A stretch of DNA of 48,261 nucleotides, taken from contig JBDTWD010000007.1 in NCBI GenBank assembly GCA_040006915.1, positions 1 through 48,261 on the forward strand, in the 5' to 3' direction. The position numbers and the translations under genes were made by a program. This DNA is from Candidatus Woesebacteria bacterium. GTDB taxonomy: Bacteria; Patescibacteriota; Microgenomatia; UBA1400; UBA12028. A model generated the notes under the pieces. The model was not told the origin of the DNA, ran no database searches, and saw only the letters and a program-made list of their open reading frames with translations. This document shows, piece by piece, positions 1 through 48,261 of the stretch (position 1 is its first letter; each line of letters starts with the position of its first letter).

Positions 1-79
1 TCGGAGCATTTTTATTTACTTCAGGAGTTCCCGCAGCTTTTTTGTCTTTTGAAAGTAATGTAAAAAGATTGAGTGCCAT
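1..79 (-). CDS. 5' end of an ORF that runs off the window (MALNLFTLLSKDKKAAGTPEVNKNAP...). By position it could be the ATPase part of a VirB4-like protein.
   Basis: ATG at 79-77 on the minus strand, 1 nt after the stop of the upstream gene (81-83). The frame stays open to the window edge. Only 26 codons are visible. Confidence 0.3.
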   Translation of the reverse strand, partial: MALNLFTLLSKDKKAAGTPEVNKNAP

Positions 80-15872: not shown

Positions 15873-17741
15873 TTAGAAATCAGAATCTACTCTATCTGTA
15901 TCTGGTTTTAGTGGGGCAGAGAAAGCTCTCCCTGCTTTGTCTCGACGAGCTTCAGACCTGTCTACCTGCTCATTTGTGGCCCTCTTGCGTCCACGTAATC
16001 TATCGTAGACACCGATGACACCACCATACTGGTCAATATATTGTTTCTTATCCTTTGGAGCAAGCACCATGAGTTCTTGCTGTCTCTTACGGTACGCATC
16101 AGTTCCAATAAGACTGTTTTTCCAGCCCGTATAAGCTTTTCCTACGCCTCCAACACCAGCAAGCCCTGTCAATCCCACTCCCGGTATTAATTCTCCGCCT
16201 TTGAAGCCCTTACTTGCAAATTCACCAGCAGCTTTCCCTACATCCAAGTTGAGTTTTCCTGTCGCTAGCTGTTTGGCAATTTCCACTGCTTGAGGGATCA
16301 TAGCAAGAATTCCAAATTGGAGAATAGCAAGCACAAAAGTACCTGAGGATCCGGCATGGATTCCCAATTGTGGGGCGGCAAAACCACCTTGGCCGGTTGT
16401 TCCAAAGTTGTCGTTAGGATTGTAAGTGAAATATTGAGCGCAAAACAGGAAAAAGATCACAACAGGGAAGACCAAGAGATTCTCCCATAGTCCTTTAATC
16501 CACGCACCAAAGGTGTTCTGTCCGGGGACAGCTCCGATGAGCAGTTGAATGGGAGCAAACACGACAGCAAAGATGACTCCGACGTAGGCTTTCAGGAGGG
16601 CAAAGAATATTCTAAACATGTTAACCAAGAGAGCAACTAACATGACTAAGAGGAAGATAATGCCGGCACCAAAGCCTGCTAAACCCGAGACTCCACTCCA
16701 TCCAGTAGTGGAAAGCATATCTGTAACCGCTGTACCGATCTGAGTGGCAATCGTTGATACGGCTCCACCAGAGATTAAGTTCCAAATATTGCCTAAGATG
16801 TTGTTACTAAAGGCAATGTTGGTGAGCGTTCCGTTATCCAGTTTTCCTGCTGCACTACTGACGGTGAAGATATTGATCATTAAGAAGATGATCAAATACA
16901 TCAAATCAACCATCAGACCAGCAATCGCATAGGAAAAGGTGACGAGAAGCAGAGCAATGACGATCTTGGGAAGGGCTTGTTGGATAGTCACCGCAGCTTG
17001 CCCTCCCAGTCTACTACGGAACATAATTAAGAATCCGATTACCAAGAAGATTAAGACAAAGAAAAAGTAGGCGACATTTCGAAACAATCTCCACAACCCT
17101 AAGACCGGACGAAGGGAAGAGAAGCCTAAACCTTGCGCATAGGCAGGTTGCGCCCCAAATGGATTTTGTAAGCTATCGCGTACGTACGCGACATATTCTC
17201 CGGTACTTATTGGTATAGCCGCAACAAAACCAGTCGCTTTGGTCAAAGAGCCAATCGCTCCGGACTCATAATACTTTGCTTGCACACCAGCGGGTGGTGG
17301 GCCGAAAAATGCTTGATTATTTGCGTCAGTTCCTCCACCCCCGATTACGACGGCAAGATAACCACCAGTATTACGAAGAACATTGGTATTGTGAGTTTCA
17401 GCATTCAGTGAGCCATCTTTTTCATGATCAGCTCGACCCTCAACAACTTCTTTTACTTCTAGAGGAAGACTGGTGTTATATCCTGCAACGAAAGTACGAC
17501 AATTAATATCAGTAGGGAAATTATTTCCTGTTTTACACCACGCACAGGCGCTTTGATTTGGTGAACCTGCACACCCTGCACAGAGTGCGGGAGGATTGGC
17601 GCCAGTACAAAAATTGTCGTAGGGAGCTGCCATCACTTTGGTCGTGACTGTATAGACACACAAGAACAAGATGAAGAAAATAAAGCTGCTAAAGCGAGTC
17701 AATTTCTGGAGGTGCTGAAGGGAGGACTTGAGTGACACCAT
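15873..17741 (-). CDS. VirB6/TrbL-like polytopic membrane protein with a Cys-rich extracytoplasmic N-domain
   Basis: Signal/anchor sequence, then CTGANPPALCAGCAGSPNQSACAWCKTGNNFPTDINC, then about 8 hydrophobic helices and a basic cytoplasmic tail. I prefer ATG 17741 to the track's TTG 17768. Confidence 0.65.
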   Translation of the reverse strand: MVSLKSSLQHLQKLTRFSSFIFFILFLCVYTVTTKVMAAPYDNFCTGANPPALCAGCAGSPNQSACAWCKTGNNFPTDINCRTFVAGYNTSLPLEVKEVVEGRADHEKDGSLNAETHNTNVLRNTGGYLAVVIGGGGTDANNQAFFGPPPAGVQAKYYESGAIGSLTKATGFVAAIPISTGEYVAYVRDSLQNPFGAQPAYAQGLGFSSLRPVLGLWRLFRNVAYFFFVLIFLVIGFLIMFRSRLGGQAAVTIQQALPKIVIALLLVTFSYAIAGLMVDLMYLIIFLMINIFTVSSAAGKLDNGTLTNIAFSNNILGNIWNLISGGAVSTIATQIGTAVTDMLSTTGWSGVSGLAGFGAGIIFLLVMLVALLVNMFRIFFALLKAYVGVIFAVVFAPIQLLIGAVPGQNTFGAWIKGLWENLLVFPVVIFFLFCAQYFTYNPNDNFGTTGQGGFAAPQLGIHAGSSGTFVLAILQFGILAMIPQAVEIAKQLATGKLNLDVGKAAGEFASKGFKGGELIPGVGLTGLAGVGGVGKAYTGWKNSLIGTDAYRKRQQELMVLAPKDKKQYIDQYGGVIGVYDRLRGRKRATNEQVDRSEARRDKAGRAFSAPLKPDTDRVDSDF

Positions 17742-17754
17742 GAGATATATTGTA
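17742..17754 (-). promoter_or_regulatory. -10 box TACAAT, 7 nt upstream of the VirB6-like ATG
   Basis: Minus strand reads GTGTACAAT-ATATCTC-ATG. It shares the 12-mer TACAATATATCT with the sigma-gene promoter. Confidence 0.4.
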
Positions 17755-17786
17755 CACCAAAAGCTCAAGCAAAAAACAAGTCAAAC

Positions 17787-20700
17787 TTAGTTAATACCAT
17801 TGTAGAAATCTTTTACACGAGAGGGGAATTGTCTGTTGTTACAGAAATCATTTTGTCCGGTCGTTTTTTCTCCAGAATAGCGACGCAAGAATGCCAAGTA
17901 AGTAGGTTGGCCATTTAAAGTATTTAGAAAAACGGATACCTGCGGGGTGATACTTGCTGCTGTACGGCTTGAGTTTTGTGATATCACTCCAAAGTCTGCA
18001 ACATCATAGGCGCCAAACCCTGATTCATCTCCCCAGATGGAAAGTGCTAACCTAGGGCTGACACCGGCTTCTTTGGCTTTTTGGACCACATACTGACAAG
18101 CAGTCAATGTTCCATTCGGAGAGTAACTACCACTGGCGTCAACTTTATGAGCAATCAAAGTAAACTTCGGTGCTCCTCGTTTCGGACTATACGTACACGC
18201 AACACGTGAATAGAAGTTCTCATTACAAAGTCCGTCTCCTCCATCGTTCCCATTTTTCCAAGAAGCCACATCTAAAGCAGAAGAATAAAGTGCGGCTTTT
18301 TGTCCGACTGATCCTGCTCCAGCCTCACCAGCTGTACATGTATGAGTGGAATTAACGACTGCAATTCCGCCACCTGCAGTAATACCACCGCTCGTCCCGT
18401 TACAGGTAGCGACTTCAGTTTCAAGATATGCTAAATCCCCGCTACCCGGAGCTGGAGATGAACCAGGAGTCGCTCCTTTGGTACAAGCAGAGAGCCCCTC
18501 TTTTAAGAACGCTTCAAAGCCAGCATATGGAACTGTAGGAATATTATTGTTTGGACGTAAGACATTACACATTACTTCCCATAAGCCGCGTGCTAACATG
18601 CCGCCAGGAACTTGAGGATCTGGATTAAACTCACTGACTCCTTTGGTTCCAGTTACGCGACCTTCCAAAAAGACCGGACCTTGATCTACTGTCGTGCCAG
18701 CAGGAGGAGCATTCGGATCAGGAGGGGCGTTCGGATCGATAGGAGGAGCTTCACCACGATTCTCTCCAATTGGAGAGTTTGCCCTCACCGGAGGGGAGGA
18801 AATATCAAACCCAGAGCCAGAAAGTTGCAGATACCGAAATGGATTCCTTGGGCTCGTTTGCTCAGAACTTCGAGAGATGAAATGGAAATCAGGATCCTTG
18901 ATATTTTGATTCGGAACGAATGTTTGCACAAATGACAACTCATAGTTATTGATATTGCGATATTCTTCTGGAAGTAACAGGAAGGTTCGCACCGTCTGTG
19001 GATCACCAGCTCCAGTACCTCCTGCAGTGAGTCTAGCGACAGCAGTTTGCTTACGCGGCTGGACTGGATCAGGATTCCCTTCAGGGTTAATTAAATGATT
19101 GACTTGTGGGGCGGTCTCCCCGACGTAGTTTTCATAGCTACAACCAGCAAACGGAGTGCCAAGGGTTGCTCCAAAGTTAATTGGGGTTGTAAATTGGGCA
19201 TTAATACGTCGGACAATGATGCCACGATAGTCATCTGCGGGAATTTGGCTACACTTGGTACATTGGATATATTTTTTGTCGGAATTAGAGTTGAACGAGG
19301 GATTGCCGACCTTAGGAGTAAGACCCTTCACTTCATCTTGGGTTATGGTTTCAATGCGATCAATCGTTTCTTTGGGAAGAATCGATTTAATGACTTGGGT
19401 AAAACCGCCATCGTACGTTGGAAAGAAGGATTTTTTGTCAGGAATTGTCGCATTGTTTTCTTCCGCAAAGCCTGCTGGGACATAGACTTTGGTGATTTGA
19501 ATGCGATCGTTAATTGTCATGTTTAAAATTTCACTAGGATCAGTTTCAAGGGTACTAGGGGTGAGCCAAGTCACTTTGCTGGCAAAATCACTTGGTTGGT
19601 CTTCAGGCCGGTCCATGTAGCGGACAATATAGGCAGGCTTAAAGGCCCTAGGAGTGGTAACCTCAATAGATGTGAACGCTTGATACCAGTCTTTATTTTT
19701 TGTTTGGACGTTCTCTACCCATTCTGGAGAACAAGTAGCAGTTCCTGATACCTTAGGAATATTGTTCCCAACTTCTTTGTAGCTAGGAAACTGTGGCTTA
19801 GCGCCAGGGATGGGACGATATAACGCACATTCGCCTTTAGGAGCGGCGGATGCGGAGGCAATCTGAGGTGGCTTTTTTGAATCCGTCGTTGTGCCCACGG
19901 CATTCACAGCAATATTGCTGCGTTTGTATTCATCATCACACAGCTGCTTGATGGCAGAAAGATAGGTCATAGTGTTAGTACATTGCACCGTTTGGGAAGT
20001 CAGCTTTTTTGAAACACCGTTGGCTAGTGGGGAGATCAAGTCAGTGGCCTGGTTCAATTGTTTTTTTGTATAATTGGCTGAGAAGAATCCCTCAAGATCA
20101 TCCATGCGGCGAGTGGGATCTGTGGGTCGGGGAGAAGTGACATCCTGCATACGAAACAAGGGAATAACTGTCTTGGTGTTGTCAATGAACACATTCCCAA
20201 AGGCAATAAAACTACATGCAGGATCGTTTGGGGTACAGGGTCCATCAAAACGATTTGGACCAGGACCATTCGATGCTTTACTATCATAGCCTGGAAGAGC
20301 ATCATTTAGTTTACTTTCGTTAGTGATTTCTCCTTGGAGGGTAATCTTGTTTCCACACGTTAACATGTAACTGGCAGCCATGGCATTCTTTTGATCTGTT
20401 CCTTGCATGTCTTCAATTCCTGGATAAACAAACAGGGGATTTTGGCGACCATTACAGTCATCTGTTACTTCTTGTCCATTCTTGTCATAGGCTTTACCGT
20501 AGACATAAAAGAGCCAATCACTTTTTGTAACGTTACTGTTTTTACATGGATCAAGAATCAAGGTTGTTGCAGTCTCAACGCCAGCTGGCATTTGGTAGGT
20601 ATTCAAAAAATCGAGTTGATCCTTAATGCTGGGAGGCGGTTGGGTATTGGGATCAACACCCAGTCCACCAAAGTGGACCACTTTTTTCCCTGGACACATA

Positions 20701-21401
20701 TTAGTCTGTAAAAACTGCCAAGCATCTAAAGCTGGAAGTCCAACTCGTGATCCTGATAATTTAAACACGTTCGCAATCAATACGTCGGCACCAGCACAAC
20801 CACCGCTGCCTTTGAAGGAATTGATCCACGGAACTGGATCCCAGACACCGTTATATAAATCAGGGGGGGCCGGAGCGACTTTGAAGTATCCGGCACATCC
20901 AGAATGAACAGCATCAGCTAACGCGTTAAATTGCGTTGCATATTGTTTCGCAGCCTCGGAGAGACTAGTTGTTCCTTTATATTCTAGATCCAGGTTATTT
21001 AACTCATTTCCGACTCCCACGATAGTTCCTTGTGGGAAGACACCTTTGTTCGCACATAGTGCTGATCCATACGCTGCAAACTTGCTGGCAGGGGCGTTGA
21101 AATCAAATCCAACAATACGGATCGCAACTTTAGGACTTTGAGGAGTCGGATTATATGGAGCTTCATCTAATCCATTGGCAACTTGCACGATTCCTTTGAA
21201 TTGTTGTGGCACAAGTAGCGCTCCATTTAAAGCTTCTTGTGCCCCGCGATCAAAGCCAGCACCAGCGACTTCTGGTCCGATATCATCACGATGCGCAGGG
21301 GCAGCTTGTGCATATACTTGAGCAGAAGTCAGGAAAACGGACCCTAACAAGAGAGCAATAAAAAAAGAGAACGACGATACTACACGGCAGATCTGTCGCA
21401 T
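17787..21401 (-). CDS. giant secreted protein with a possible clan GH-A-like glycosidase motif near the N-terminus and a lysozyme/SLT-like C-terminal domain
   Basis: Signal peptide FFIALLLGSVFLTSAQVYAQA. GVGNELNN lies at residues ~130-136. A PPIDPNAPPDPNAPP repeat is present. The C-terminal ~105 aa (GVSPRLALSIWGDESGFGAY) carries a transglycosylase-like E-S motif. Confidence 0.8.
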   Translation of the reverse strand: MRQICRVVSSFSFFIALLLGSVFLTSAQVYAQAAPAHRDDIGPEVAGAGFDRGAQEALNGALLVPQQFKGIVQVANGLDEAPYNPTPQSPKVAIRIVGFDFNAPASKFAAYGSALCANKGVFPQGTIVGVGNELNNLDLEYKGTTSLSEAAKQYATQFNALADAVHSGCAGYFKVAPAPPDLYNGVWDPVPWINSFKGSGGCAGADVLIANVFKLSGSRVGLPALDAWQFLQTNMCPGKKVVHFGGLGVDPNTQPPPSIKDQLDFLNTYQMPAGVETATTLILDPCKNSNVTKSDWLFYVYGKAYDKNGQEVTDDCNGRQNPLFVYPGIEDMQGTDQKNAMAASYMLTCGNKITLQGEITNESKLNDALPGYDSKASNGPGPNRFDGPCTPNDPACSFIAFGNVFIDNTKTVIPLFRMQDVTSPRPTDPTRRMDDLEGFFSANYTKKQLNQATDLISPLANGVSKKLTSQTVQCTNTMTYLSAIKQLCDDEYKRSNIAVNAVGTTTDSKKPPQIASASAAPKGECALYRPIPGAKPQFPSYKEVGNNIPKVSGTATCSPEWVENVQTKNKDWYQAFTSIEVTTPRAFKPAYIVRYMDRPEDQPSDFASKVTWLTPSTLETDPSEILNMTINDRIQITKVYVPAGFAEENNATIPDKKSFFPTYDGGFTQVIKSILPKETIDRIETITQDEVKGLTPKVGNPSFNSNSDKKYIQCTKCSQIPADDYRGIIVRRINAQFTTPINFGATLGTPFAGCSYENYVGETAPQVNHLINPEGNPDPVQPRKQTAVARLTAGGTGAGDPQTVRTFLLLPEEYRNINNYELSFVQTFVPNQNIKDPDFHFISRSSEQTSPRNPFRYLQLSGSGFDISSPPVRANSPIGENRGEAPPIDPNAPPDPNAPPAGTTVDQGPVFLEGRVTGTKGVSEFNPDPQVPGGMLARGLWEVMCNVLRPNNNIPTVPYAGFEAFLKEGLSACTKGATPGSSPAPGSGDLAYLETEVATCNGTSGGITAGGGIAVVNSTHTCTAGEAGAGSVGQKAALYSSALDVASWKNGNDGGDGLCNENFYSRVACTYSPKRGAPKFTLIAHKVDASGSYSPNGTLTACQYVVQKAKEAGVSPRLALSIWGDESGFGAYDVADFGVISQNSSRTAASITPQVSVFLNTLNGQPTYLAFLRRYSGEKTTGQNDFCNNRQFPSRVKDFYNGIN

Positions 21402-21414
21402 GAGATTTATTATA
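21402..21414 (-). promoter_or_regulatory. -10 box TATAAT, 7 nt upstream of the ATG of the 1204-aa secreted protein gene
   Basis: Minus strand reads GGTATAAT-AAATCTC-ATG. Confidence 0.45.
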
Positions 21415-21451
21415 CCTTAGATTGCTGTGTAGAGGAAAAACAAACGCAAGA

Positions 21452-21886
21452 TTATATCTGTGTATTAAAATCCATGAGTGTCGGGATGCCAGTAAACGTG
21501 GAAATAAAGCGCAGGATCACAAACGAGGCGAGAGCCACCACAATTCCTAGAATTGCGAAGCTAATGGCTTTCTTTCCGCTCTCCACACCTTTTGCATTGG
21601 CTCCAGCTGTGAGATATTGAAACGAACCGATCAGGAACATGACGAACGCAGCAATGCCGATGATTGTGATCGCAGTTGATAATACATTTGCAACTAAACA
21701 CTCAATTCCCTGAATGGTAGCGACGTCCGCGTTTGGATCTTTCGAGACAGTGGTTCCAGCCGTCACATAACCGCCAACACATTTTCCGGTCCAGGCGTTG
21801 GTTTGAGATTGAGCAAGAACAGGTGAGGCGAGTGTAATAAACATTGAACTACATACAAAGAAGATGGAGAGAGCTTTTGATTTCAT
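21452..21886 (-). CDS. T4SS pilin-fold protein P1 (VirB2/TrbC-like)
   Basis: Sec signal ending PVLA|QS, then two TM helices flanking YLTAGANAKGVESGKKAISFAILG. Confidence 0.75.
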   Translation of the reverse strand: MKSKALSIFFVCSSMFITLASPVLAQSQTNAWTGKCVGGYVTAGTTVSKDPNADVATIQGIECLVANVLSTAITIIGIAAFVMFLIGSFQYLTAGANAKGVESGKKAISFAILGIVVALASFVILRFISTFTGIPTLMDFNTQI

Positions 21887-21903
21887 AGCCTATTCATTAT
21901 AGC

Positions 21904-21933
21904 AAACAAAAGCCCCCGCTTTAAGCGAGGGCT
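21904..21933 (-). terminator. intrinsic terminator after pilin gene P2
   Basis: The minus strand reads AGCCCTCGC-TTAAA-GCGGGGGCT (one G:U pair) followed by TTTGTTTG. It starts about 25 nt after the P2 stop. Confidence 0.7.
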
Positions 21934-21958
21934 TTATTCATTTCAATTCAACACAAGG

Positions 21959-22360
21959 TTAGTATCCTTGTGGGATCGCAATTGGGCCACCGATGGTGGT
22001 TCCAAAGAAGCGATTCAAGACTGCACCGATAGCAAAGGCAGATGCGACGATTGCCAAACCAATGATGGCGTTGGTAATTTTCTGACGTGCACTTTCTGTC
22101 TTACTTTTATCTCCACCGGCAGTCAACCACTCAATTCCACCCCAGATCAGGTAGATGAATACCAAGAGTCCAACGATACCTAAGACAACTTGAAGAAGTC
22201 TAGTGATCAAGACTCCGATATCAGTGATCTTGAATCCAGCTTGACCAGCATCAATACTGATGGTGTCCTGTGGGGGGATTCCTTGGGCAAATACAGGACT
22301 AGCAAATGCAACGAGTGCACTTCCAGCTGCGGTTGCAGATGCAATTAATTTTTTTACCAT
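21959..22360 (-). CDS. T4SS pilin-fold protein P2 (candidate major subunit)
   Basis: Signal peptide ending PVFA|QG, core EWLTAGGDKSKTESARQKITNAIIGLAIV. An AAGGAG SD lies 7 nt upstream and an intrinsic terminator lies downstream. Confidence 0.8.
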   Translation of the reverse strand: MVKKLIASATAAGSALVAFASPVFAQGIPPQDTISIDAGQAGFKITDIGVLITRLLQVVLGIVGLLVFIYLIWGGIEWLTAGGDKSKTESARQKITNAIIGLAIVASAFAIGAVLNRFFGTTIGGPIAIPQGY

Positions 22361-22433
22361 AGCACTTCTCCTTAGATAATATTAGGTATGCTACTAGAGC
22401 TATTCTACCATGTTAGGCAACAAAGCCGCTCGA

Positions 22434-22453
22434 GTCAAGCAGGAAAGCTTGAC
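22434..22453 (-). other. perfect 7-bp stem-loop immediately after the P3 stop
   Basis: GTCAAGC-N6-GCTTGAC, 1 nt downstream of the stop at 22455, with no U-tract. It could be an mRNA processing or stability element ahead of P2. Confidence 0.35.
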
Positions 22454-22454
22454 A

Positions 22455-23012
22455 CTATGGGCAATTTGGCCACGCGAATGTGTGGGTTCCAGTCACACAA
22501 CTACACGGTTCGTAATGAACATAGGAAAGTCCGCCGACTCCCGCTGCTTCGCACTTGACCATGGCTGCTCCACCTCCGGTGCAGTAGCCTCCAGCTCCAC
22601 CGTCATTCACTGTTGCATTCACAGCAACATTTCCAGCACATGTTTGAGCCGTTGGATTTTGACCGCCAGTATTTCCGCCACCAGTTGTTCCTCCAAATCC
22701 TAGGTTAATTCGATCCCCGAGTCCGAAGAATCCTAAAAGGAGTCTAAAGATGGCAAACACGGATGCGAGAATCGCTAAACCAATGATTGCTTGGGTGATT
22801 TCACTTCGAGCAGTTTCGATTTTACTTTTGTCTCCACCTGCAGTAATCCAGTTAAATCCTCCCATCAGAAGATAGAGTAGGACAGCCAAAGTTCCGACGA
22901 CCAAAACTCCACCAGCACCCAGTTCAACTACTTTTCCGATGGTTTGCACCGGAGAGATAGTCAACGATTGAGCGCCGATATTTAAGTTGTTTTGTGCAAG
23001 TAAGATAAACAT
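22455..23012 (-). CDS. T4SS pilin-fold protein P3 with a Gly/Cys-rich C-terminal extension
   Basis: Trimmed to ATG 23012 (MFILLAQ...). Core NWITAGGDKSKIETARSEITQAIIGLAIL, then GGTTGGGNTGG and a 5-Cys tail. Confidence 0.75.
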   Translation of the reverse strand: MFILLAQNNLNIGAQSLTISPVQTIGKVVELGAGGVLVVGTLAVLLYLLMGGFNWITAGGDKSKIETARSEITQAIIGLAILASVFAIFRLLLGFFGLGDRINLGFGGTTGGGNTGGQNPTAQTCAGNVAVNATVNDGGAGGYCTGGGAAMVKCEAAGVGGLSYVHYEPCSCVTGTHTFAWPNCP

Positions 23013-23016
23013 AGAA

Positions 23017-23445
23017 TTAATTTTTACACGGACATCCAGGCATTGGAACACAAGTAGGTGCTTGTTGATTTGGACACTGAGGGATCTGTCCACCGCCGTT
23101 CGTTGCCGGAGTACCAGTTAAGTTGTCTGCAAAGTTGGGGTTGAGTAGTTGCAAACCGATGATTCCACCAATAAAGATACTGATTGCTACCGTTCCGACT
23201 AATACTAGCATTCCGATGACTGACTGCGTAATACGATTGCGGGCCGCTTCAATTTTTCCTTTGTCTCCACCTGCGGTAATCCACTCCAAAGCGCCAATGA
23301 CAAGCATGACGAGAAGAGCAAGGCCTCCAAGAGTCACAGCCGTACGCCAAACAGTGACGATAATGTTCGTCAAAGCTACGTTGGCAGGTCCGGTTCCAAA
23401 GGTTGGAACAACAGGATTCGTGATTTGAGCAATAAGTGTCAACAT
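23017..23445 (-). CDS. T4SS pilin-fold protein P4 with a short Cys-rich C-terminal tail
   Basis: MLTLIAQ..., core EWITAGGDKGKIEAARNRITQSVIGMLVL, tail CPNQQAPTCVPMPGCPCKN. Confidence 0.75.
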   Translation of the reverse strand: MLTLIAQITNPVVPTFGTGPANVALTNIIVTVWRTAVTLGGLALLVMLVIGALEWITAGGDKGKIEAARNRITQSVIGMLVLVGTVAISIFIGGIIGLQLLNPNFADNLTGTPATNGGGQIPQCPNQQAPTCVPMPGCPCKN

Positions 23446-23449
23446 AGGT

Positions 23450-23833
23450 TTATGGAGTTCCTCCTCCTGGAGCCAACTGTTGTAGCAGTTTTAATGGGTT
23501 TAATACATCGAGTCCTAGTACTCGTCCAACGACACCAACGATTCCATATCCAGCAATCACGACTACTAAACCTAAAGCGGCTTGGGTCATTTGGTTACGA
23601 GCGCTTTCAACTTTGCCTTTATCTCCACCAGAAGTAATCCAGGACAGGGCGGCAAAGATAAAGAAAATCAAGAACATTAACCCGGCAAGAGTGGTCAAAA
23701 AACCCAAGAAATTACTCAAGAAATTTTCAAGAGGAATTCCTCCAGCTTCGGCTCCCGTTCCTGGAGCAGGAGTAAATGCCGCTGTTGGAGGTTTTAAAGG
23801 ACCGAGTTGGAGTTGGGCTAAAAGTCGCGACAT
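23450..23833 (-). CDS. T4SS pilin-fold protein P5
   Basis: MSRLLAQ..., core SWITSGGDKGKVESARNQMTQAALGLVVV. Confidence 0.75.
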   Translation of the reverse strand: MSRLLAQLQLGPLKPPTAAFTPAPGTGAEAGGIPLENFLSNFLGFLTTLAGLMFLIFFIFAALSWITSGGDKGKVESARNQMTQAALGLVVVIAGYGIVGVVGRVLGLDVLNPLKLLQQLAPGGGTP

Positions 23834-23834
23834 A

Positions 23835-24206
23835 TTATGGTACAGCAGTAGGAATAACTGGATTTAAGATAAAGGTAGCATCACCAAACAACAAGAAACT
23901 GATAATGGCAGTGATTGCAAATGAACCGACAATCAAGATTAAGCCGATCAAGCTGTAGGAAAGTTGTTGCATTGCTTGCTCAGTCGCTTTGGCATTTCCA
24001 GCTGAATTTAAATAGGTATAACCAGCACCGATGATATTAAACAAACCAAACAGGCCAGCTATGATCGTAATCACTTTGATTAAGTTCGACGCGAAAATGA
24101 CAATGCCAATACCATCTGGTCCACCAGCTTGAGCATTAAAGATTGCCACTCCTGGGGGAGGACTGACAGTTCCAAAGATTTGTAAAACTGGAAGTATGAT
24201 AATCAT
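23835..24206 (-). CDS. T4SS pilin-fold protein P6 (divergent)
   Basis: Two TM helices flanking YLNSAGNAKATEQAMQQLSYSLIGLILIV. Confidence 0.65.
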   Translation of the reverse strand: MIIILPVLQIFGTVSPPPGVAIFNAQAGGPDGIGIVIFASNLIKVITIIAGLFGLFNIIGAGYTYLNSAGNAKATEQAMQQLSYSLIGLILIVGSFAITAIISFLLFGDATFILNPVIPTAVP

Positions 24207-24218
24207 AGGACTTGACTA

Positions 24219-24563
24219 TTATAGCGTTGAATTCAAAATCGGTACACCAGTGATCCTTTGGATGATTTGAATGATCCAGAATGCGGCAAAAATAACTAAA
24301 AATCCAATCACCGCTCCAGTAATCTGACCTTTCCCTTGTTCGACACTTTTGGCATTCCCTCCAGAAGAGATGATGGCAAATCCGCCACCAATCAAGAGGA
24401 AAAGTAAAATAATTCCGGCGATAATAAAGGCTAGAGGAACGAGAAGATTTAGAAAAGAAGAGATTGTGGCGTATTTCCCTTGTGCTCCTCCGACTGCGTT
24501 TACTCCCCCTTGGTCCAAGAACAGCTGATCTCCAATATTAAAAGCGAACAGTAATGCAGACAT
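24219..24563 (-). CDS. T4SS pilin-fold protein P7 (first gene of the array)
   Basis: Two TM helices flanking IISSGGNAKSVEQGKGQITGAVIGFLVIF. TATACT lies 7 nt upstream of the ATG. Confidence 0.7.
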   Translation of the reverse strand: MSALLFAFNIGDQLFLDQGGVNAVGGAQGKYATISSFLNLLVPLAFIIAGIILLFLLIGGGFAIISSGGNAKSVEQGKGQITGAVIGFLVIFAAFWIIQIIQRITGVPILNSTL

Positions 24564-24576
24564 ACACAGTAGTATA
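24564..24576 (-). promoter_or_regulatory. -10 box TATACT, 7 nt upstream of the P7 ATG (pilin array promoter, leaderless-type)
   Basis: Minus-strand TATACT at 24576-24571, spacer ACTGTGT, ATG at 24563. Confidence 0.45.
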
Positions 24577-24586
24577 CAATATATCT
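24575..24586 (+). promoter_or_regulatory. -10 box TACAAT, 6 nt upstream of the sigma-factor ATG (leaderless-type)
   Basis: TACAAT 24575-24580, spacer ATATCT, ATG 24587. It overlaps the divergent -10 box by 2 nt. Confidence 0.45.
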
Positions 24587-25132
24587 ATGGTTTTTTCGAA
24601 TGAAGCAGCTCTGATTGTGGCATTAAAAAGCGGTGAAAGCTCCATGGTTAGCCGATGGTATGAGGAGTCAAAACGAGCCCTCCTGGCTTTCTTCGTGCAT
24701 CAAGTGAGTAATGAAGCGGATGCTCAGGAGCTGGTTCATGACACGTATATGTCATGCCTTGCTTCACTGCCACTGTTTAGAGGAGAGTCGGGCCTATGGA
24801 GTTTTATGATTTCCATTGCTCGCCATGAACTGGCAGACTATTGGCGCAAAAAGTACGCCAAAAAAGCCATTGCGATGCTCCCATTCGGTCAAGAATTATT
24901 AGATACCGTGGAGCGTCCTCAGGGCAGTGAGCCACAAACCCAAGAAGTACAAGAATTACTACAAAATCTTCCCGGTGATATTGCTGAACTTTTAGCTCTA
25001 AAATACATTGACGGCTTATCAGTCAAAGAATTGGCCAAGAAATATAAATTAAGTTTTGCGGCGATGCAAAGTAAGTTGTATCGAGCTAAAGAAGTATTTA
25101 AAGAACAGTATGAACGAAACCCAATTTCTTAA
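24587..25132 (+). CDS. ECF-type RNA polymerase sigma-70 family factor
   Basis: Region 2: ELVHDTYMSCLASLPLFRGESGLWSFMISIARHELADYWRKK. Region 4 HTH: LALKYIDGLSVKELAKKYKLSFAAMQSKLYRAKE. I prefer ATG 24587 to 24554, which overlaps the divergent pilin gene. Confidence 0.85.
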   Translation: MVFSNEAALIVALKSGESSMVSRWYEESKRALLAFFVHQVSNEADAQELVHDTYMSCLASLPLFRGESGLWSFMISIARHELADYWRKKYAKKAIAMLPFGQELLDTVERPQGSEPQTQEVQELLQNLPGDIAELLALKYIDGLSVKELAKKYKLSFAAMQSKLYRAKEVFKEQYERNPIS

Positions 25133-26631: not shown

Positions 26632-26797
26632 AAAACTAAAAGTATTAGAAGGAATAGGGCTTTCGACTTCACGAGCACAAGAAGTATTGAATGATGAATC
26701 CGACACTTTTTGGGATGGAATTGCATCTGGTTCAATAGTCTTGAGCCCTGATCAACTACTTGCGCTCTTTTCCAAAGAAACTGAAGTTGCTGCTTAA
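26615..26797 (+). CDS. hypothetical small protein
   Basis: 60-aa ORF packed exactly between idi (17-nt overlap) and the kinase start at 26799. No motif recognised. Confidence 0.35.
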   Translation: MTESDKKLKVLEGIGLSTSRAQEVLNDESDTFWDGIASGSIVLSPDQLLALFSKETEVAA

Positions 26798-26798
26798 T

Positions 26799-27647
26799 AT
26801 GCAAGACTTCACTTCTCATGGCAAGATTATTCTTTCCGGAGAACACTCCGTAGTATACGGCTATCCTGCGCTCGTCTGTCCTGTGGATCAAGAAGTGAAA
26901 GTTGTAATTCAAAAGGGAGAACAAAAAAAAACATCTCCTTTTTTGCTCAATATTCTTTCGATTTTTCAGAACGAGCAAGAGGTCTCTTTTGATGATCTAT
27001 TGATTGTAATAGAAAGTACTCTACCTCTCGGTAGTGGCTTAGGATCTTCAGCTGCGACTGCATCGGCAGTTTTCCAGGCACTCTATTGTTTTTTTAAAAT
27101 TAAATATACGAAAAAGCATTTACTTTTCTTGGTCCAAGAAAGTGAAAAATTCGCGCATGGAAATCCAAGCGGAGTAGACGCAGTGGCTGTCGTATACCCA
27201 AGCATAATCGAATTTCAAAAAACAGATGAGCAAATTGAGTGGGATATAATTGCAACAGGTAAAGCTCTTCCTCCTTTTCTTCTCCTTCAGTCAGGAATTC
27301 CAAGTGAAACAACTCGAGAAATGGTTGAATATGTAAAAACCTTCTCCCGGAAAGAAGAGATTTTACCTCGAATTGGGAAAATCACTCAAAAAATGATTAA
27401 GAAACTTAAAGAGAAGCATCTTGATTTAGGGCTCATTACGCAAAACGAGCGGTTGCTAGAAGAACTGGGTGTTGTCGGTCAGAAAGCTCTGTCTATGATT
27501 CATCAAATTGAAAGTAAAGGGGGAGTAGCAAAGATTGTTGGTGCAGGTGGCAGAGAAAATGGTTCAGGAGTAATCATCGCATTTCATCCTACCAATATTT
27601 CAATACTACGAGAAGTTGCTCTACAAAACGAATGGGAGATTATTTAA
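26799..27647 (+). CDS. mvk: GHMP kinase, mevalonate-kinase-like
   Basis: Trimmed to MQDFTSHGKIILSGEHSVVYGYPAL. GHMP motif PLGSGLGSSAATASAV. C-terminal GAGG. Confidence 0.75.
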   Translation: MQDFTSHGKIILSGEHSVVYGYPALVCPVDQEVKVVIQKGEQKKTSPFLLNILSIFQNEQEVSFDDLLIVIESTLPLGSGLGSSAATASAVFQALYCFFKIKYTKKHLLFLVQESEKFAHGNPSGVDAVAVVYPSIIEFQKTDEQIEWDIIATGKALPPFLLLQSGIPSETTREMVEYVKTFSRKEEILPRIGKITQKMIKKLKEKHLDLGLITQNERLLEELGVVGQKALSMIHQIESKGGVAKIVGAGGRENGSGVIIAFHPTNISILREVALQNEWEII

Positions 27648-27651
27648 TACT

Positions 27652-28623
27652 ATGATAGTGGTCACTGCTTCTGCCCCAGGCAAGTTATTACTTTTCGGAG
27701 ATCATGCTGTCGTCTATGGACGACCTTGCATTGTCACTGCTGTGGATCAACGCTTGTGGGTCACAGTTAAAAAAAATGGCATAGATGTTTTTCATTTAGA
27801 GGCTCCTGATCTTGGTCTGTCTGCATATTCCAAAACAGTAAAAGAACTGGGAAAGAAAGAAGTGCCGAAATCTGTTTCATTTATCGAACATGTGTATAAA
27901 CGTTTTTTGGAACGATTCCCACAAAAAGAAGGAATTATTGTTACCACAAAAAGTGATTTCTCTAGTAATTTCGGATTTGGTTCAAGCAGTGCGGTTACAG
28001 TGGCCTTTGCCAAAGCCCTTACAACGTTGTACGGAATTTCATATACAAAAATGGAGCTTTTTGAATTGTGCTACCAAGCCGTCCTTGATGTTCAGGGGGT
28101 GGGATCTGGTTTTGATATCGCCGCTGCGATTTGGGGAGGCACTATTTACTACGTCAGTCCAGCAAAGATTGTAGAACAGTTAGATTGTCCTGATTTGTCG
28201 CTGATAGTTGGATATACCGGAATGAAAGCTGACACTCCAACCTTAATACGCATGGTTGAATCGCAGTATAAAGAGAATGAAGAAGCAATTGGAGCAATTT
28301 TTGATGAGATGGGAACAATTGTTGATCAAGCTCGAGAAGTAATGAAAGACAAGAAGTGGAAAAAGGTTGGAGAACTAATGATTAAAAATCAACAACTGCT
28401 TGCGTTTTTGAAGGTGAGTAGCGTGCAACTGGATGCACAAATCAATGCTAGTATCAAAGCCGGAGCGTATGGAGCAAAATTGTCAGGGGCTGGTGGTGGT
28501 GATTGTATGGTTGCGGTTAGCGATCCATCAAAAAAAGATTCTATTGAATCGGCAATTCAAAAAGTAGGGGGGATAATTCTGCCAGTGAATCTCAATGCCA
28601 GAGGAGTCACCATTGAAAAATAA
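27652..28623 (+). CDS. second GHMP kinase, probably phosphomevalonate kinase (also mevalonate-kinase-like in sequence)
   Basis: MIVVTASAPGKLLLFGDHAVVYGRPCIV, FGFGSSSAVTVAFAKAL, LSGAGGGDCMVAV. The PMK assignment comes from operon logic only. Confidence 0.65.
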   Translation: MIVVTASAPGKLLLFGDHAVVYGRPCIVTAVDQRLWVTVKKNGIDVFHLEAPDLGLSAYSKTVKELGKKEVPKSVSFIEHVYKRFLERFPQKEGIIVTTKSDFSSNFGFGSSSAVTVAFAKALTTLYGISYTKMELFELCYQAVLDVQGVGSGFDIAAAIWGGTIYYVSPAKIVEQLDCPDLSLIVGYTGMKADTPTLIRMVESQYKENEEAIGAIFDEMGTIVDQAREVMKDKKWKKVGELMIKNQQLLAFLKVSSVQLDAQINASIKAGAYGAKLSGAGGGDCMVAVSDPSKKDSIESAIQKVGGIILPVNLNARGVTIEK

Positions 28624-28627
28624 TTCT

Positions 28628-29605
28628 ATGAAAACAACGATTCAAGCTTCTTCAGATGTTGCTCTTGTCAAATATTGGGGAAAAAAAGACGAGATTCTAC
28701 GACTTCCCGAAAATGGAAGTATTTCCATGATTCTCGAAGGGCTCGATACCAAAACGACAGTTGAATTTCAGTCTGAACTAGAATTAGATGATGTCCTCAT
28801 TGCCGGCGAAAAAGGAAAAGGAGAGGAAGAGCGGGTCTCGAAGCATCTAGACCGAATTCGCAAACTCGCTGGAGTTCCAACTTTTGCAAAAGTTGTATCA
28901 GAAAATGTGTTTCCTAAAGGAACAGGTCTCTCGAGTTCTGGTTCAGGCTTTGCCGCACTGACGCTTGCCGCGACCAAAGCACTAGGAATGAATTTGAGTC
29001 AAAAAGAATTGAGCATTCTTGCTCGACAAGGGTCGGGAACTGCTTGTCGGTGTGTGTGTGGAGGATTTGTTGAATGGAAAGATGGTGATACTAGTGAGAC
29101 ATCATATGCGGAGACTATCTTTTCCAAAGAGTACTTCGATATTCGAGATGTGGTTGCTGTCGTCAGTGAGGGGAAGAAAGCAATTTCTTCAACTCAGGGA
29201 CACGCAAATGCCAAATCAGGAATTTTCTTTCAAGCCAGGCAAGCGCACATTCAACAAAAAATTGAGGCTGTAAAACAAGCGGTTGGCAAAAAAGACTTTA
29301 CTCTATTGGGTGAATTAGTAGAAGCCGAGGCATTAGAGTTCCACAGTATTCTATTTACCAGTAGTCCTTCGCATATTGCCTGGTATCCAGGAACGATAGA
29401 AGTCATACTTGCGGTGCAGCAGATGAGAAGAGATGGCATTAAAGCATACTTTACAATTAACACAGGGTTTAATGTCCATGTACTTACACTTCCAGAATAT
29501 GAGACGGAAGTGTGCGATAGATTACAAAAACTTTCACTTGTCCAAAAATGTATTCGCACTACAGTTGGAGATGCTCCAAAAGAACTCCATACTCATTTGT
29601 TTTAA
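28628..29605 (+). CDS. mvaD: diphosphomevalonate decarboxylase
   Basis: ALVKYWGKKDE...NGSISM, GTGLSSSGSGFAALTLA, ARQGSGTACRCVCGGFVEW. Confidence 0.9.
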   Translation: MKTTIQASSDVALVKYWGKKDEILRLPENGSISMILEGLDTKTTVEFQSELELDDVLIAGEKGKGEEERVSKHLDRIRKLAGVPTFAKVVSENVFPKGTGLSSSGSGFAALTLAATKALGMNLSQKELSILARQGSGTACRCVCGGFVEWKDGDTSETSYAETIFSKEYFDIRDVVAVVSEGKKAISSTQGHANAKSGIFFQARQAHIQQKIEAVKQAVGKKDFTLLGELVEAEALEFHSILFTSSPSHIAWYPGTIEVILAVQQMRRDGIKAYFTINTGFNVHVLTLPEYETEVCDRLQKLSLVQKCIRTTVGDAPKELHTHLF

Positions 29606-29607
29606 AT

Positions 29608-30300
29608 ATGCAAAAACCCACTTTACCCAAACACATTGCTATCATCATGGATGGAAACCGTCGGTGGGCACGGCAAAACAAATTAAAAGCCTTGCAAGGA
29701 CATTCGTATGTCGTTGATCATTGTATCGAGCCATTGGTTGATCGATGTATTGAGCTTGGTATTCCATATTTAACCTTGTGGGCTTTTAGTACCGAAAACT
29801 GGGAACGGGATCAAGAGGAAGTTTCAGGATTGATGAACATCTTTCGTCGAGCATTTCAAAAGAAAGCCGAGGATCTGCACAAAAAAGGTGTGCGACTCAA
29901 TGTTTTAGGCGACATCGATGCATTTCCCAAAGACATTGCTGCGCAAGCAAAAGAATGGGTGAAGTTATCGACCACAAACACCAATATTACCGTATCATTT
30001 GCGTTAAACTACGGTGGACGAGCAGAAATATTGCATTCAGTCAACAAACTTTTAAAATCAAATCATCAATTGCCAATTCAGTCGGAAGACTTCGAAGAGA
30101 ATCTGTATACTGTCGGTCTACCTGATCCAGATTTATTGATCAGACCAGGTGGAGAGAAGCGTCTTTCTGGCTTCCTACCTTGGCAAACGGTTTATACTGA
30201 GCTGTATTTTACCGATATTTTAATGCCTGACTTCACCCCCGAGAAACTAGATGAGGCACTCGAAGAGTACGCCAAACGACAGCGTCGTTTTGGACACTAG
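29608..30300 (+). CDS. uppS: undecaprenyl-diphosphate synthase (cis-prenyltransferase)
   Basis: PKHIAIIMDGNRRWAR...LTLWAFSTENWERD...NYGGRAEI...DLLIRPGGEKRLSGFLPWQ. Confidence 0.95.
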   Translation: MQKPTLPKHIAIIMDGNRRWARQNKLKALQGHSYVVDHCIEPLVDRCIELGIPYLTLWAFSTENWERDQEEVSGLMNIFRRAFQKKAEDLHKKGVRLNVLGDIDAFPKDIAAQAKEWVKLSTTNTNITVSFALNYGGRAEILHSVNKLLKSNHQLPIQSEDFEENLYTVGLPDPDLLIRPGGEKRLSGFLPWQTVYTELYFTDILMPDFTPEKLDEALEEYAKRQRRFGH

Positions 30301-30593
30301 AGAATGCTAATTCCAAAGATTCTCTGCACAATCTGGGCCAGCCAGAATGAAGCAAACAGAAGAAGAAACCCAACTAGTGCTGCCGTAATCCGTTCTTTAC
30401 CTGCTTGTTGGGATTTCGGGTCCGCTGCTCCGGTTAACATTTCAAATCCACCCCAAATGAGCATAATAAAGAGAATAAGACCGCCGAATGAAAATAAGTA
30501 GGGAAGTAACTTGGAAATAATCCCTCTAGGAGTTGTCAGTTGTACATCTGGTCCTGCTGCTCCAAAAATTGCTTGATTAAGTTTAGTAAAGGT
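30297..30593 (-). repeat. copy 1 of a ~295-bp direct repeat encoding the shared C-terminal pilin module of P8/P9
   Basis: Aligns with 30935-31231. The 32-mer ATAATCCCTCTAGGAGTTGTCAGTTGTACATC is identical at 30517-30548 and 31155-31186. By hand alignment, 87 of 98 encoded residues are identical. Confidence 0.85.
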
Positions 30594-30890
30594 TGCACTG
30601 TTTACCCCCGGTCCAGTACCATCAGGGTTTTGACCGAATTGTTGGCACAGTTGTGAGGAAGTAGGAGGTCCGCAATAGTAGGCAACTGTTCCATCAGCAC
30701 AGGTCGTCGTTTGTGCAGTACAGACAGCAGGCTGACTCCCACCGTTACTGTCGACGACGCTTTGTAAGCAGGTAACAGGAACAGTACTCCACTGTCCACA
30801 GTTCACAGACGCAGCCTGAGCAAAACTATGCTGTCCACACAATAAAAAAATCCCAACCACAATCAGTAGTATTTTTCTTGTCTTTTTCAT
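30297..30890 (-). CDS. secreted Cys-rich domain fused to a T4SS pilin module (P8)
   Basis: Trimmed to MKKTRKILLIVVGIFLLCGQHSFAQA. An 8-Cys N-domain of about 75 aa is followed by WGGFEMLTGAADPKSQQAGKERITAALVGFLLLF. Confidence 0.75.
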   Translation of the reverse strand: MKKTRKILLIVVGIFLLCGQHSFAQAASVNCGQWSTVPVTCLQSVVDSNGGSQPAVCTAQTTTCADGTVAYYCGPPTSSQLCQQFGQNPDGTGPGVNSATFTKLNQAIFGAAGPDVQLTTPRGIISKLLPYLFSFGGLILFIMLIWGGFEMLTGAADPKSQQAGKERITAALVGFLLLFASFWLAQIVQRIFGISIL

Positions 30891-30934
30891 TGCATAGCTA
30901 GTATGCCTTAAACTGAAGAAAGTTACAGAATCAT

Positions 30935-31231
30935 TTAGAGGATGCTGATTCCAAAGACCTTTTGCACAATCTGTGCTAGCCAGAAGGAGGAGAAGAGTAG
31001 CAAGAAACCAATAATGGCGGCCGTAATTCGTTCTTTTCCTGCTTGTTGGGATTTCGGGTCTGCTGCCCCGGTTAACATTTCGAATCCACCCCAAAGGATC
31101 ATGATAAACAAAATCAGTCCTGCAAAGGAAAAGAGATAGGGAAGCAATTTTGAGATAATCCCTCTAGGAGTTGTCAGTTGTACATCAGGCCCAGCTGCCC
31201 CAAAAATTGCGGCATTTAATTTGGAAAACAA
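30935..31231 (-). repeat. copy 2 of the ~295-bp direct repeat (P9 C-terminal pilin module)
   Basis: See copy 1. Confidence 0.85.
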
Positions 31232-31867
31232 CAGTGGCGTTGCTCCCTCAGTTGGATTAATGGGGGCATTTGAAATTGGTGGAATCGTTGGCTGTGTTGC
31301 TGAACACCCAGAAGTAGTATTCACTGCCCATCCACAACAGCGTCTTCCCGCTATTGGTGGATTGTATTCTGCATTGGACTGACAGTCACATGTTTCCGTT
31401 GCCGTGTTATATGCATGTCCACAAGTTTTTGCGATGGTTGCCGGTGCGGTTGCATATCCTTGGCAGCTCGTACCCTGATCGTTATTGGCTTGGCCGATAA
31501 CTCCTTGCAAAACATAGGTCGCTCCAGGTTGAGGCGCCGTGTTTGCAAAGGCGTTTGGAGCAGAGACTGCACAAGTGTAGGTAACGGTACTTGTTGTACT
31601 CAGTTGTTTGGTGCACTCAGACTCATTGATTCCGGTTTGATGAATAATGGTTCCAGAGCCCGTTAAAAATATCTCAAGACCAATAGGGAAGTGCTGACTG
31701 GGGAAAGGAGAGTTTGTTTGAAACGTAACGGTGGCGTTATATCCAGTAGAGGTAATTGAAGTGTTTGAGACTCCACAACTAGAGGCAAAAACAGCGGTTG
31801 GTAAAACGAAACCGACAAAAAGAAGAACGGTGAGTGACAAGATAGTGGTGGTGAAAATCTTCTTCAT
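30935..31867 (-). CDS. secreted Cys-rich domain fused to a T4SS pilin module (P9)
   Basis: Trimmed to MKKIFTTTILSLTVLLFVGFVLPTAVFA. A Cys/Thr-rich N-domain of about 185 aa is followed by a C-terminal module nearly identical to that of P8. Confidence 0.75.
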   Translation of the reverse strand: MKKIFTTTILSLTVLLFVGFVLPTAVFASSCGVSNTSITSTGYNATVTFQTNSPFPSQHFPIGLEIFLTGSGTIIHQTGINESECTKQLSTTSTVTYTCAVSAPNAFANTAPQPGATYVLQGVIGQANNDQGTSCQGYATAPATIAKTCGHAYNTATETCDCQSNAEYNPPIAGRRCCGWAVNTTSGCSATQPTIPPISNAPINPTEGATPLLFSKLNAAIFGAAGPDVQLTTPRGIISKLLPYLFSFAGLILFIMILWGGFEMLTGAADPKSQQAGKERITAAIIGFLLLFSSFWLAQIVQKVFGISIL

Positions 31868-31871
31868 ACGA

Positions 31872-33059: not shown

Positions 33060-33116
33060 ACCTTGTAATTTTACCATTCTCTTGTATTTAAGGGGAAGGA
33101 AAACGCAAATACTGGT

Positions 33117-40929: not shown

Positions 40930-41014
40930 GTACTTTAGTCGTTGACGATAAAACCTAGATACCATCTTACGCTCAAAGGTATTAGATGGATTTATCAGAG
41001 CTTTTCGATACTTG

Positions 41015-41101
41015 CGGAGAGGGTGGGATTCGAACCCACGAAGAGCTTTCACCCTTAGTAGTTTTCAGGACTACCGCACTAGACCACTATGCGACCTCTC
41101 C
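41015..41101 (-). tRNA. type-II tRNA, Ser-like, anticodon UGA by hand fold (anticodon loop CCUGAAA)
   Basis: GGAGAGG-TC-GCA-TAGTGGTCTAG-TGC-G-GTAGT-CCTGAAA-ACTAC-(18-nt variable arm)-GTGGG-TTCGAAT-CCCAC-CCTCTCC-G. CCA is not encoded. Confidence 0.8.
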
Positions 41102-46024: not shown

Positions 46025-46094
46025 TGGTCTAGTGCGGCCGCCTACTAAGCGGCTGTGGCGCAAGTCACCGTGGGTTCGAATCCCACCCTCTCCG
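46010..46094 (+). tRNA. type-II tRNA, Ser-like body, anticodon loop CUACUAA (anticodon ACU by hand fold)
   Basis: GGAGAGG-TC-GCA-TAGTGGTCTAG-TGC-G-GCCGC-CTACTAA-GCGGC-(16-nt variable arm)-GTGGG-TTCGAAT-CCCAC-CCTCTCC-G. The acceptor, D and T arms are identical to the tRNA at 41015-41101. Confidence 0.75.
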
Positions 46095-46095
46095 C

Positions 46096-48260: not shown

Positions 48261-48261
48261 C

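Follow-up and report, generated by a model that had tools for sequence, protein, structure and literature searches.

We analysed a stretch of 48,261 nucleotides from a Candidatus Woesebacteria bacterium (contig JBDTWD010000007.1 of assembly GCA_040006915.1; hereafter the window), which carries a tandem array of seven small genes, P7 to P1, linked to genes of a type IV secretion system (T4SS). An earlier note, made from the sequence alone, had read these genes as divergent VirB2-like pilin paralogs and had argued that the punctuation of the array singles out P2, in the manner of pilus operons whose major subunit is differentially expressed. Our calls of open reading frames (ORFs) recovered seven consecutive small genes, all on the minus strand, as had been claimed (Table 1).

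Seven paralogs of the PF18895 family

All seven proteins matched the PF18895 T4SS_pilin family in Pfam, with P1, P2, P5 and P7 scoring above the gathering score of 26.6 bits and P3, P4 and P6 falling below it at E = 2e-5 to 3e-4. Every pair among P1-P7 was similar by BLASTP at E <= 5e-4, with 20-64% identity over 47-128 aa, a likeness far beyond chance. The closest paralog of P2 was P3 (64% over 56 aa). Hydropathy and alignment revealed in each protein two strongly hydrophobic segments flanking a short basic loop, and in the AF2 model of P2 these form a helical hairpin (H47-80/H85-118, pLDDT > 90) behind the signal-peptide helix. The shared motif described in the earlier note was exact in P2-P5 (W[IL]T[AS]GGDK[SG]KxExAR) but loose in P1, P6 and P7, which carry a G(A/G)NAKxxE variant. 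For P3 we took the start as the ATG at 23012 because this leaves a 4-nt gap to P4 and gives an N-terminus, MFILLAQ, that resembles those of P4 and P5; the alternative GTG at 23093 overlaps P4.

The N-termini are of two kinds. Those of P1 and P2 are signal-peptide-like, ending in LAQ and FAQ, and P3-P7 are without a signal peptide, having just a leader of 5-10 residues that ends in AQ or a similar motif. We also observed that a short leader of the form M-x(1-6)-[LI][LI]-A-Q or x-[VA]-[YF]-A-[AQ] is common in pilin paralogs lacking a signal core (P3, P4, P5 and their orthologs in loci L002-L081), the motif being present at 185/508 pilin N-termini against 45/508 in a control window. It resembles the end of a signal peptide at which cleavage occurs. 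The hydropathy-based classifier that we used for signal peptides proved too strict for the Ala-rich leaders of P2, and its per-position counts were left unused.

The Cys-rich tails that had been noticed on P3 and P4 do follow the second transmembrane (TM) helix, but they are lineage-restricted: of the genes in the P3 position 10/49 have one, and of those in the P4 position 2/45. The C-terminal extension of P3 varies among species. At least two Cys precede TM1 in 14 of the 20 scorable P1 orthologs.

Arrays of this kind have already been published for Patescibacteria, where they lie in T4SS loci and are essential in Southlakia epibionticum (PMC12102498, PMC10633639, PMC12857230). The array of Saccharibacteria was first described as a set of secreted proteins by McLean et al. 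2020 (PMC7427843) and was re-annotated by Wang et al. 2023 as essential pilin subunits in a T4SS cluster (PMC10633639). A survey by Quinonero-Coronel et al. 2025 reported 441 arrays of 2-11 VirB2-like genes in 383 assemblies, richest in Microgenomatia and Saccharimonadia and with a mean identity of 25% (PMC12102498). With seven contiguous genes and three more 5.7 kb upstream, the present array falls within the published definition of 2-11 pilin genes in tandem or interrupted by one non-pilin gene, and by the local alignments given above it shares the low mutual identity of the published arrays (mean 25%, maximum 54%; PMC12102498).

Table 1. Positions of the pilin genes, of the signals around them and of neighbouring genes in the window
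Feature	Position	Strand	Description
P7	24219-24563	minus	114 aa; opens the block of five upstream genes; two TM helices joined by loop variant GGNAKSVEQGK; PF18895 28.5 bits
P6	23835-24206	minus	123 aa pilin paralog, 12 nt past P7; PF18895 21.2 bits, E = 3e-4; positional orthologs in 75 loci
P5	23450-23833	minus	127 aa pilin paralog, 1 nt past P6; PF18895 33.4 bits
P4	23017-23445	minus	142 aa pilin paralog; C-terminal tail with 4 Cys; PF18895 25.0 bits
P3	22455-23012	minus	185 aa from ATG 23012; 85-aa C-terminal extension with 6 Cys; PF18895 21.5 bits
P2	21959-22360	minus	133 aa; helical hairpin with loop WLTAGGDKSKTESARQK, behind a predicted signal peptide (..SPVFA/QG); PF18895 38.6 bits
P1	21452-21886	minus	144 aa; pilin hairpin preceded by a signal peptide and an N-terminal segment that holds two conserved Cys (W.G.C ... 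ATIQGIEC); PF18895 26.8 bits
Promoter-like site before P7	24571-24599	minus	TCGAAA-N17-TATACT from a consensus scan; 7 nt separate the -10 box from the P7 ATG; putative function
P2 promoter region	22402-22438	minus	TTGACT (22438-22433), 17 nt, TAACAT (22415-22410); overlapping TGG-TAGAAT extended -10 (22410-22402); putative function
P2 Shine-Dalgarno AAGGAG	22368-22373	minus	7 nt ahead of the P2 ATG
P2 intrinsic terminator	21901-21935	minus	AAAGCCCTCGC-TTA-AGCGGGGGCTTT, then TGTTTGCT; stem 21935-21909, 12 pairs
P1 -10 box TATAAT	21896-21901	minus	9 nt ahead of the P1 ATG; abuts the T-tract of the P2 terminator
1204-aa secreted protein	17787-21401	minus	directly downstream of P1
Candidate VirB6-like protein	15873-17768	minus	631 aa, polytopic, about 7 TM segments
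PrgI/VirB3-like gene	1175-2230	minus	PF12666 PrgI
TraC-like gene	81-1178	minus	365 aa; PF26593 on the overlapping contig, locus L084
Extracytoplasmic function (ECF)-type sigma factor	24554-25132	plus	Pfam match; divergent from the array
Second pilin cluster	30297-33077	minus	Q3 31872-33077, Q2 30935-31882, Q1 30297-31094; long Cys-rich N-terminal domains and a C-terminal pilin domain

Collinear order and conserved signals around P2

Eighty species-level loci were retrieved with an alignment of the P2 family, and every ORF with a pilin domain was called in each. Start codons in the other species were projected from the window genes. Promoter and terminator calls were consensus-based, a terminator being scored where a strong hairpin and a T-run lay within 120 nt of the stop. 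The P2 homologs, at 40-95% identity and in 156 protein clusters, all came from Patescibacteria metagenomes. The named sources were Woesebacteria, Cerribacteria, Collierbacteria and Pacebacteria, which are Microgenomatia-type lineages, and the closest relatives were metagenome-assembled genomes of the first three; a 92%-identical P2 is present on an 834-kb JGI contig of a relative.

With genes labelled by their best hit among the window genes, the order P7-P6-P5-P4-(P3)-P2-P1 was observed nearly everywhere (loci L002-L081), and local duplications raise the array to 8 or 9 genes in some lineages. An all-against-all matrix that did not use the window as reference was likewise diagonal. Genes at P2 found their best hit in another species at the same relative position in 98% of locus pairs, and the figure was 80% for P5, 73% for P4, 69% for P6 and 59% for P1. 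Genes at the P3 position best matched P2 orthologs in 60% of locus pairs, and P3 is therefore a diverged P2-like copy. The median identity to the best match in other species was 42%, compared with 40% to the best paralog in the same genome. Since gene order is collinear across about 80 species, the array is of ancient origin and made up of distinct orthologous groups, which settles in favour of antiquity the question, raised in the earlier note, of whether the array is ancient or lineage-specific. We do not claim P2 as the most conserved paralog: normalised scores tie with those of P5 and P6, and any such ranking is biased because the loci were retrieved with P2 motifs.

Within the window, the five genes P7 to P3 are tightly packed, with gaps of 12, 1, 4 and 4 nt, and a spacer of 94 nt separates P3 from P2. 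The stem-loop that the earlier note had placed after P3 is real (GTCAAGC-TTTCCT-GCTTGAC, 22453-22434 on the minus strand, a perfect 7 bp stem with a free energy of -11.3 kcal/mol and z = -4.2), with no U-tract following it, but it is conserved in few relatives. We discarded it as a conserved element, a minimum free energy of -8 kcal/mol or lower being reached in only 2/72 loci. Its 3' arm forms the TTGACT box (22438-22433), and it is this -35-like box, rather than the hairpin, that is conserved at this spot. P2 has the best Shine-Dalgarno sequence (SD) of the array, no other array gene having a well-placed one, and is followed by a clear intrinsic terminator (-20.6 kcal/mol, z = -4.7) located 23 nt past its stop. 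An Rfam search of 21300-24700 returned just sub-threshold matches to attenuator leaders, located on this terminator. P1 restarts with a TATAAT of its own, and a further TATAAT (21414-21409) ends 7 nt ahead of the ATG of the 1204-aa gene past P1. The -10 boxes of P7, P1 and the 1204-aa gene thus end 7-9 nt ahead of the ATG, a spacing that suggests leaderless mRNAs.

The layout that singles out P2, with a promoter-bearing gap before it, the sole strong SD and the sole terminator after an array gene, recurs in 75-80 species-level relatives. The gap before P2 orthologs has a median of 75 nt (interquartile range 62-106), compared with medians of 3-8 nt inside the upstream block. TTGAC was present in 58/75 of these gaps (shuffles: mean 3.4, maximum 8), and the full -35/-10 pattern TTGACN-15..19-TANNNT in 36/75 (shuffle mean 0.4), the -10 box usually ending 38-48 nt ahead of the P2 ATG. 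An AGGAG-class SD precedes 49% of P2 orthologs, compared with 0-3% at each other array position. Terminators were scored after P2 in 57/78 loci, whereas each of the other positions had 0-1 in 47-78 loci, and random long ORFs used as a control had 15/316 (4.7%). The 58 P2 terminators, that of the window included, comprise 55 different hairpin sequences at a median of 22 nt past the stop, and so the structure has been kept while the sequence changed. In addition, a -10-like box ends 6-10 nt before the start of about 31/53 P7 orthologs and 5-10 nt before that of 40/74 P1 orthologs, and a module of the form hairpin-TTTTTTG-TATAAT-N6-9-ATG links P2 to P1 in many loci.

The T4SS neighbourhood

The PrgI-like and TraC-like genes are accompanied, just past the window end, by a VirB4-like ATPase of 668 aa with AAA_10 and P-loop_TraG domains (locus L084, 1590-3596, on an overlapping public contig), and these three genes lie about 13 ORFs from P1. 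The TraC-like gene is a separate ORF immediately upstream of the VirB4-like ATPase, and VirB4 function may be split over the two. Among the relatives, 11/79 and 8/79 loci have such T4SS core genes (PrgI/VirB3-like, TraC-like) on the strand of P2 and only 8-9 kb downstream of it. Just upstream of the PrgI-like gene, at 3276-7304 on the minus strand, lies a protein of 1342 aa with an M23 peptidase domain and several TM segments, which could be a cell-wall hydrolase of the T4SS.

The 631-aa polytopic protein belongs to a large family without a Pfam domain and in 56/79 loci is encoded on the strand of P2, about 4.7 kb further downstream. The top seven Foldseek matches of its AF2 model in the Protein Data Bank (PDB) were all chains of the R388 VirB5-VirB6 stalk complex, the best with E = 2.3e-3, probability 1.00 and a target-normalised TM-score (TMt) of 0.41. 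On the basis of this model the protein is a borderline candidate for a divergent VirB6, and it may be the VirB6 that the published survey found scarce in Microgenomatia (PMC12102498). The 1204-aa protein is fast-evolving, with a detectable homolog downstream of the array in only 13/79 loci, and gave neither a Pfam match nor a PDB sequence match. A VirB1- or lysozyme-like reading of its C-terminus, prompted by an 'ESGFG' motif, was dropped after a PDB sequence search with the C-terminal 206 aa gave no match. Searching the large neighbours (1204, 631, 1044, 337, 378, 554 and 609 aa) against Pfam at E <= 1 returned nothing useful, and the Pfam scans of window proteins detected no VirB5 domain.

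On the other side of the array, the annotated start of the ECF-type sigma factor overlaps that of P7 by 10 nt, and a divergent gene of this kind adjoins the array in 40/79 loci. Neither inspection by eye nor counting of 5-mers brought out an ECF-type promoter motif ahead of the P7 orthologs. The second pilin cluster was found with a hidden Markov model built from P1-P7, and in 40/79 loci Q3-like genes share the strand of the array and lie upstream of it. The pilin domains of Q1 and Q2 are 90% identical over 97 aa and their N-terminal Cys-rich parts have no detectable similarity, an arrangement reminiscent of variable heads on a constant stalk; a recent duplication, or else gene conversion, may possibly lie behind it. 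As listed, the ORF of Q1 shares 160 nt with Q2, and Q1 therefore probably begins at the internal signal peptide MKKTRKILL.

Between the two pilin clusters, at 26760-30300 on the plus strand, are mevalonate-pathway genes (two GHMP kinases and a diphosphomevalonate decarboxylase) and an undecaprenyl-diphosphate synthase, and the gene table of the 834-kb contig of the relative lists a similar mevalonate/undecaprenyl set between its own two pilin clusters. ARAGORN identified a tRNA-Ser with the anticodon ACT at 46010-46095 on the plus strand, alongside tRNA-Ser(GCT) at 48177-48261 and tRNA-Ser(TGA) at 41014-41101; A34 is unusual for a bacterial tRNA-Ser.

P2 as the candidate principal subunit

We think it fairly probable that the region is the pilin module of a Microgenomatia-type T4SS locus, in which seven anciently diverged VirB2-like proteins are expressed from three transcription units with P2 as the principal subunit. 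The first unit would be the tight operon P7-P3, with almost no SD and an apparently leaderless mRNA, and would yield low and roughly equal amounts of five specialised subunits. The second would be P2 alone. Transcribed from a sigma-70-type promoter of its own, translated from a consensus SD in a leader of about 35 nt and closed by a strong intrinsic terminator, it would give a much larger amount of one protein, the principal structural or bulk subunit of the structure that the T4SS builds. The third would restart at P1 right after the terminator, again apparently leaderless and possibly continuing into the downstream genes. The proteins would sit in the membrane with both termini outside and the basic GGDKxKxExxR loop in the cytoplasm, and would be handled by the linked VirB4, VirB3-like and VirB6-like machinery. 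The minor paralogs may be low-copy initiation, tip or adaptor subunits, and in a VirB2-like topology the lineage-variable Cys-rich tails on some of them would face outward, as the earlier note had also proposed.

The assignment to a VirB2-like family is borne out by the presence of PF18895 in all seven proteins and by linkage to VirB3-like, VirB4-like and VirB6-like genes. That linkage is the strongest contextual support for a VirB2-type pilin identity, for which the evidence as a whole is suggestive rather than decisive. PF18895 was matched by 103/103 of the relatives sampled, and PF16943 CagC (Helicobacter) by 6/103. Like VirB2, TrbC and TraA pilins, the array proteins are small, have two helices and a short basic loop, in some cases carry signal peptides, and are encoded with VirB3, VirB4 and VirB6 homologs, with weak cross-matches to PF04956 and PF16943. 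Those systems differ in having one VirB2 and a VirB5 tip protein, whereas here there are seven paralogs in a monoderm host. A tblastn search of P5 against 72,556 plasmids gave no match. In line with P2 as an abundant subunit, Paceibacteria metatranscriptomes place T4SS pilins in the top five signal-peptide genes by expression (PMC10936435).

Several observations weigh against this interpretation. The PF04956 TrbC/VirB2 matches (14/103 relatives at E <= 0.01, best 1.2e-6; P5 at E = 5.9e-4, below the gathering score) were accompanied in the same score range by noise from TM composition, for example DctQ with 16 members. A profile of the P2 family found nothing at E <= 10 among PDB sequences, and Foldseek with the P2 model found nothing significant in the PDB, the best match being the Aeropyrum conjugation pilus 8dfu (E = 2.4, TMt 0.50); the latter result is hardly discriminating because a helical hairpin is too simple a fold. 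Filaments purified from a cultivated Saccharimonadia species were Ig-fold Pam pili, with no VirB2-like filament reported (PMC13278184). The sample of loci was reached through P2 motifs, which left out genomes without a recognisable P2, and many of the loci are closely related, so that the counts represent non-independent events. In Collierbacteria-type loci, moreover, the P2 ortholog is without an SD and has only a short N-terminal leader, and thus not every feature of P2 is universal.

The arrangement also recalls type IV pili and type II pseudopili, in which one abundant subunit with its own signals is accompanied by a co-transcribed, low-level set of four or five paralogs thought to prime or tip the fibre; for the present array the abundance is one that we infer. 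The family is unrelated, however, with no class III signal peptide of the G/FTLIE kind and no link to a prepilin peptidase. The M-x-x-L-I-A-Q N-termini resemble FTLIE superficially only, and we rejected the array proteins as type IV pilins, there being no G-1 or E5 and polar residues following that start.

The published Patescibacteria arrays resemble ours in being tandem, low-identity PF18895 genes in a monoderm-type T4SS locus with PrgI/VirB3 and VirB4 (PMC12102498, PMC10633639). They differ in having been described as variable, with antigenic variation or host adaptation suggested for them (PMC12102498), whereas here there are seven fixed, ordered orthologous groups, one of which, P2, has a conserved promoter, SD and terminator. 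The T4SSs of Bartonella and Anaplasma likewise have several VirB2-type genes in tandem in one locus, and these paralogs are thought to be immune-evasive by antigenic variation (cited in PMC12102498). By analogy, P1-P7 could be interchangeable variants for antigenic variation or the matching of host strains, which would fit the low identity within the array, as in the published ones (PMC12102498), and the variable Cys-rich extensions, predicted to face outward, at the P3 position and in Q1/Q2. We consider this improbable. Each position keeps its own ortholog in the same order in about 80 species, persisting across class-level diversity, and the best match in another species is about as near as the best paralog in the same genome. 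Furthermore, no recent duplication or gene conversion was seen within P1-P7, and the five upstream genes lie in one predicted operon, where they would not be individually switchable, with signals of its own at P2 only. The fixed positional orthology therefore argues against the published reading of the arrays in terms of antigenic or host-range variation.

It is also possible, although rather unlikely in our view, that the proteins are not filament subunits but membrane-resident channel components or a lipid-embedded collar or stalk, P2 being merely the most abundant. The searches against solved pili, by structure and by sequence, gave no significant match, no VirB2-type filament was reported among those from the cultivated relative (PMC13278184), and Gram-positive-type T4SSs are normally without a pilus (PMC12102498, PMC12857230), even if the possibility of a pilus in a monoderm was raised in a 2025 review (PMC12857230). 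On the other hand, the family-level link to TrbC/VirB2 and CagC, an architecture of two helices and a basic loop that is the same as in conjugative pilins, and the published structure-based annotation as pilins (PMC10633639) all favour pilins, and the top Foldseek match, although non-significant, is an archaeal conjugation pilus. A highly improbable reading, and the original one for the TM7x array, is that the genes encode small Sec-secreted effectors exported by the T4SS, like the subunits of pertussis toxin. The signal peptides on P1 and P2 agree with it, and it was proposed for Saccharibacteria (PMC7427843), but each of the seven proteins contains a pair of strongly hydrophobic helices and matches a pilin family, P3-P7 are without a signal peptide, and the Saccharibacteria arrays were later re-annotated as pilins (PMC10633639, PMC12102498). 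Finally, the punctuation may serve timing rather than amount, with P2 constitutive and P7-P3 switched on by the divergent ECF sigma factor, for example on host contact. The recurrence of this gene beside the array and the different promoter layouts of P7-P3 and P2 could be understood in this way, but the sequence ahead of the first array gene showed no ECF-type -35/-10 motif that stood out. We regard such a switch as distinctly improbable, and it would be compatible with a division into major and minor subunits rather than opposed to it.

Returning to P2 as the principal subunit, the model could be extended to one heteromeric VirB2-type assembly, in which P2 forms the shaft, P7-P3 a tip or initiation complex of five fixed members that is seated on the VirB6-like platform, replaces VirB5 and perhaps shows variable Cys-rich binding modules, and P1 an adaptor. 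We hold this extension to be speculative and rather unlikely. If true, it would mean that a major/minor pilin system has evolved independently inside the conjugative-pilin family.

In the literature that we searched, to which access was limited, we found neither fixed positional orthology nor a conserved unit of promoter, SD and terminator around one paralog, and the comparative result appears to be unreported. The only Patescibacteria species tested requires its T4SS for epibiotic growth, and the pilin arrays are the feature that most separates the T4SSs of Patescibacteria from other monoderm T4SSs. Seven fixed groups, one of them with stand-alone signals, turn the picture of many variable pilins into a testable model, which names the P2 ortholog as the subunit to seek in filaments and proteomes and predicts exact transcript ends.

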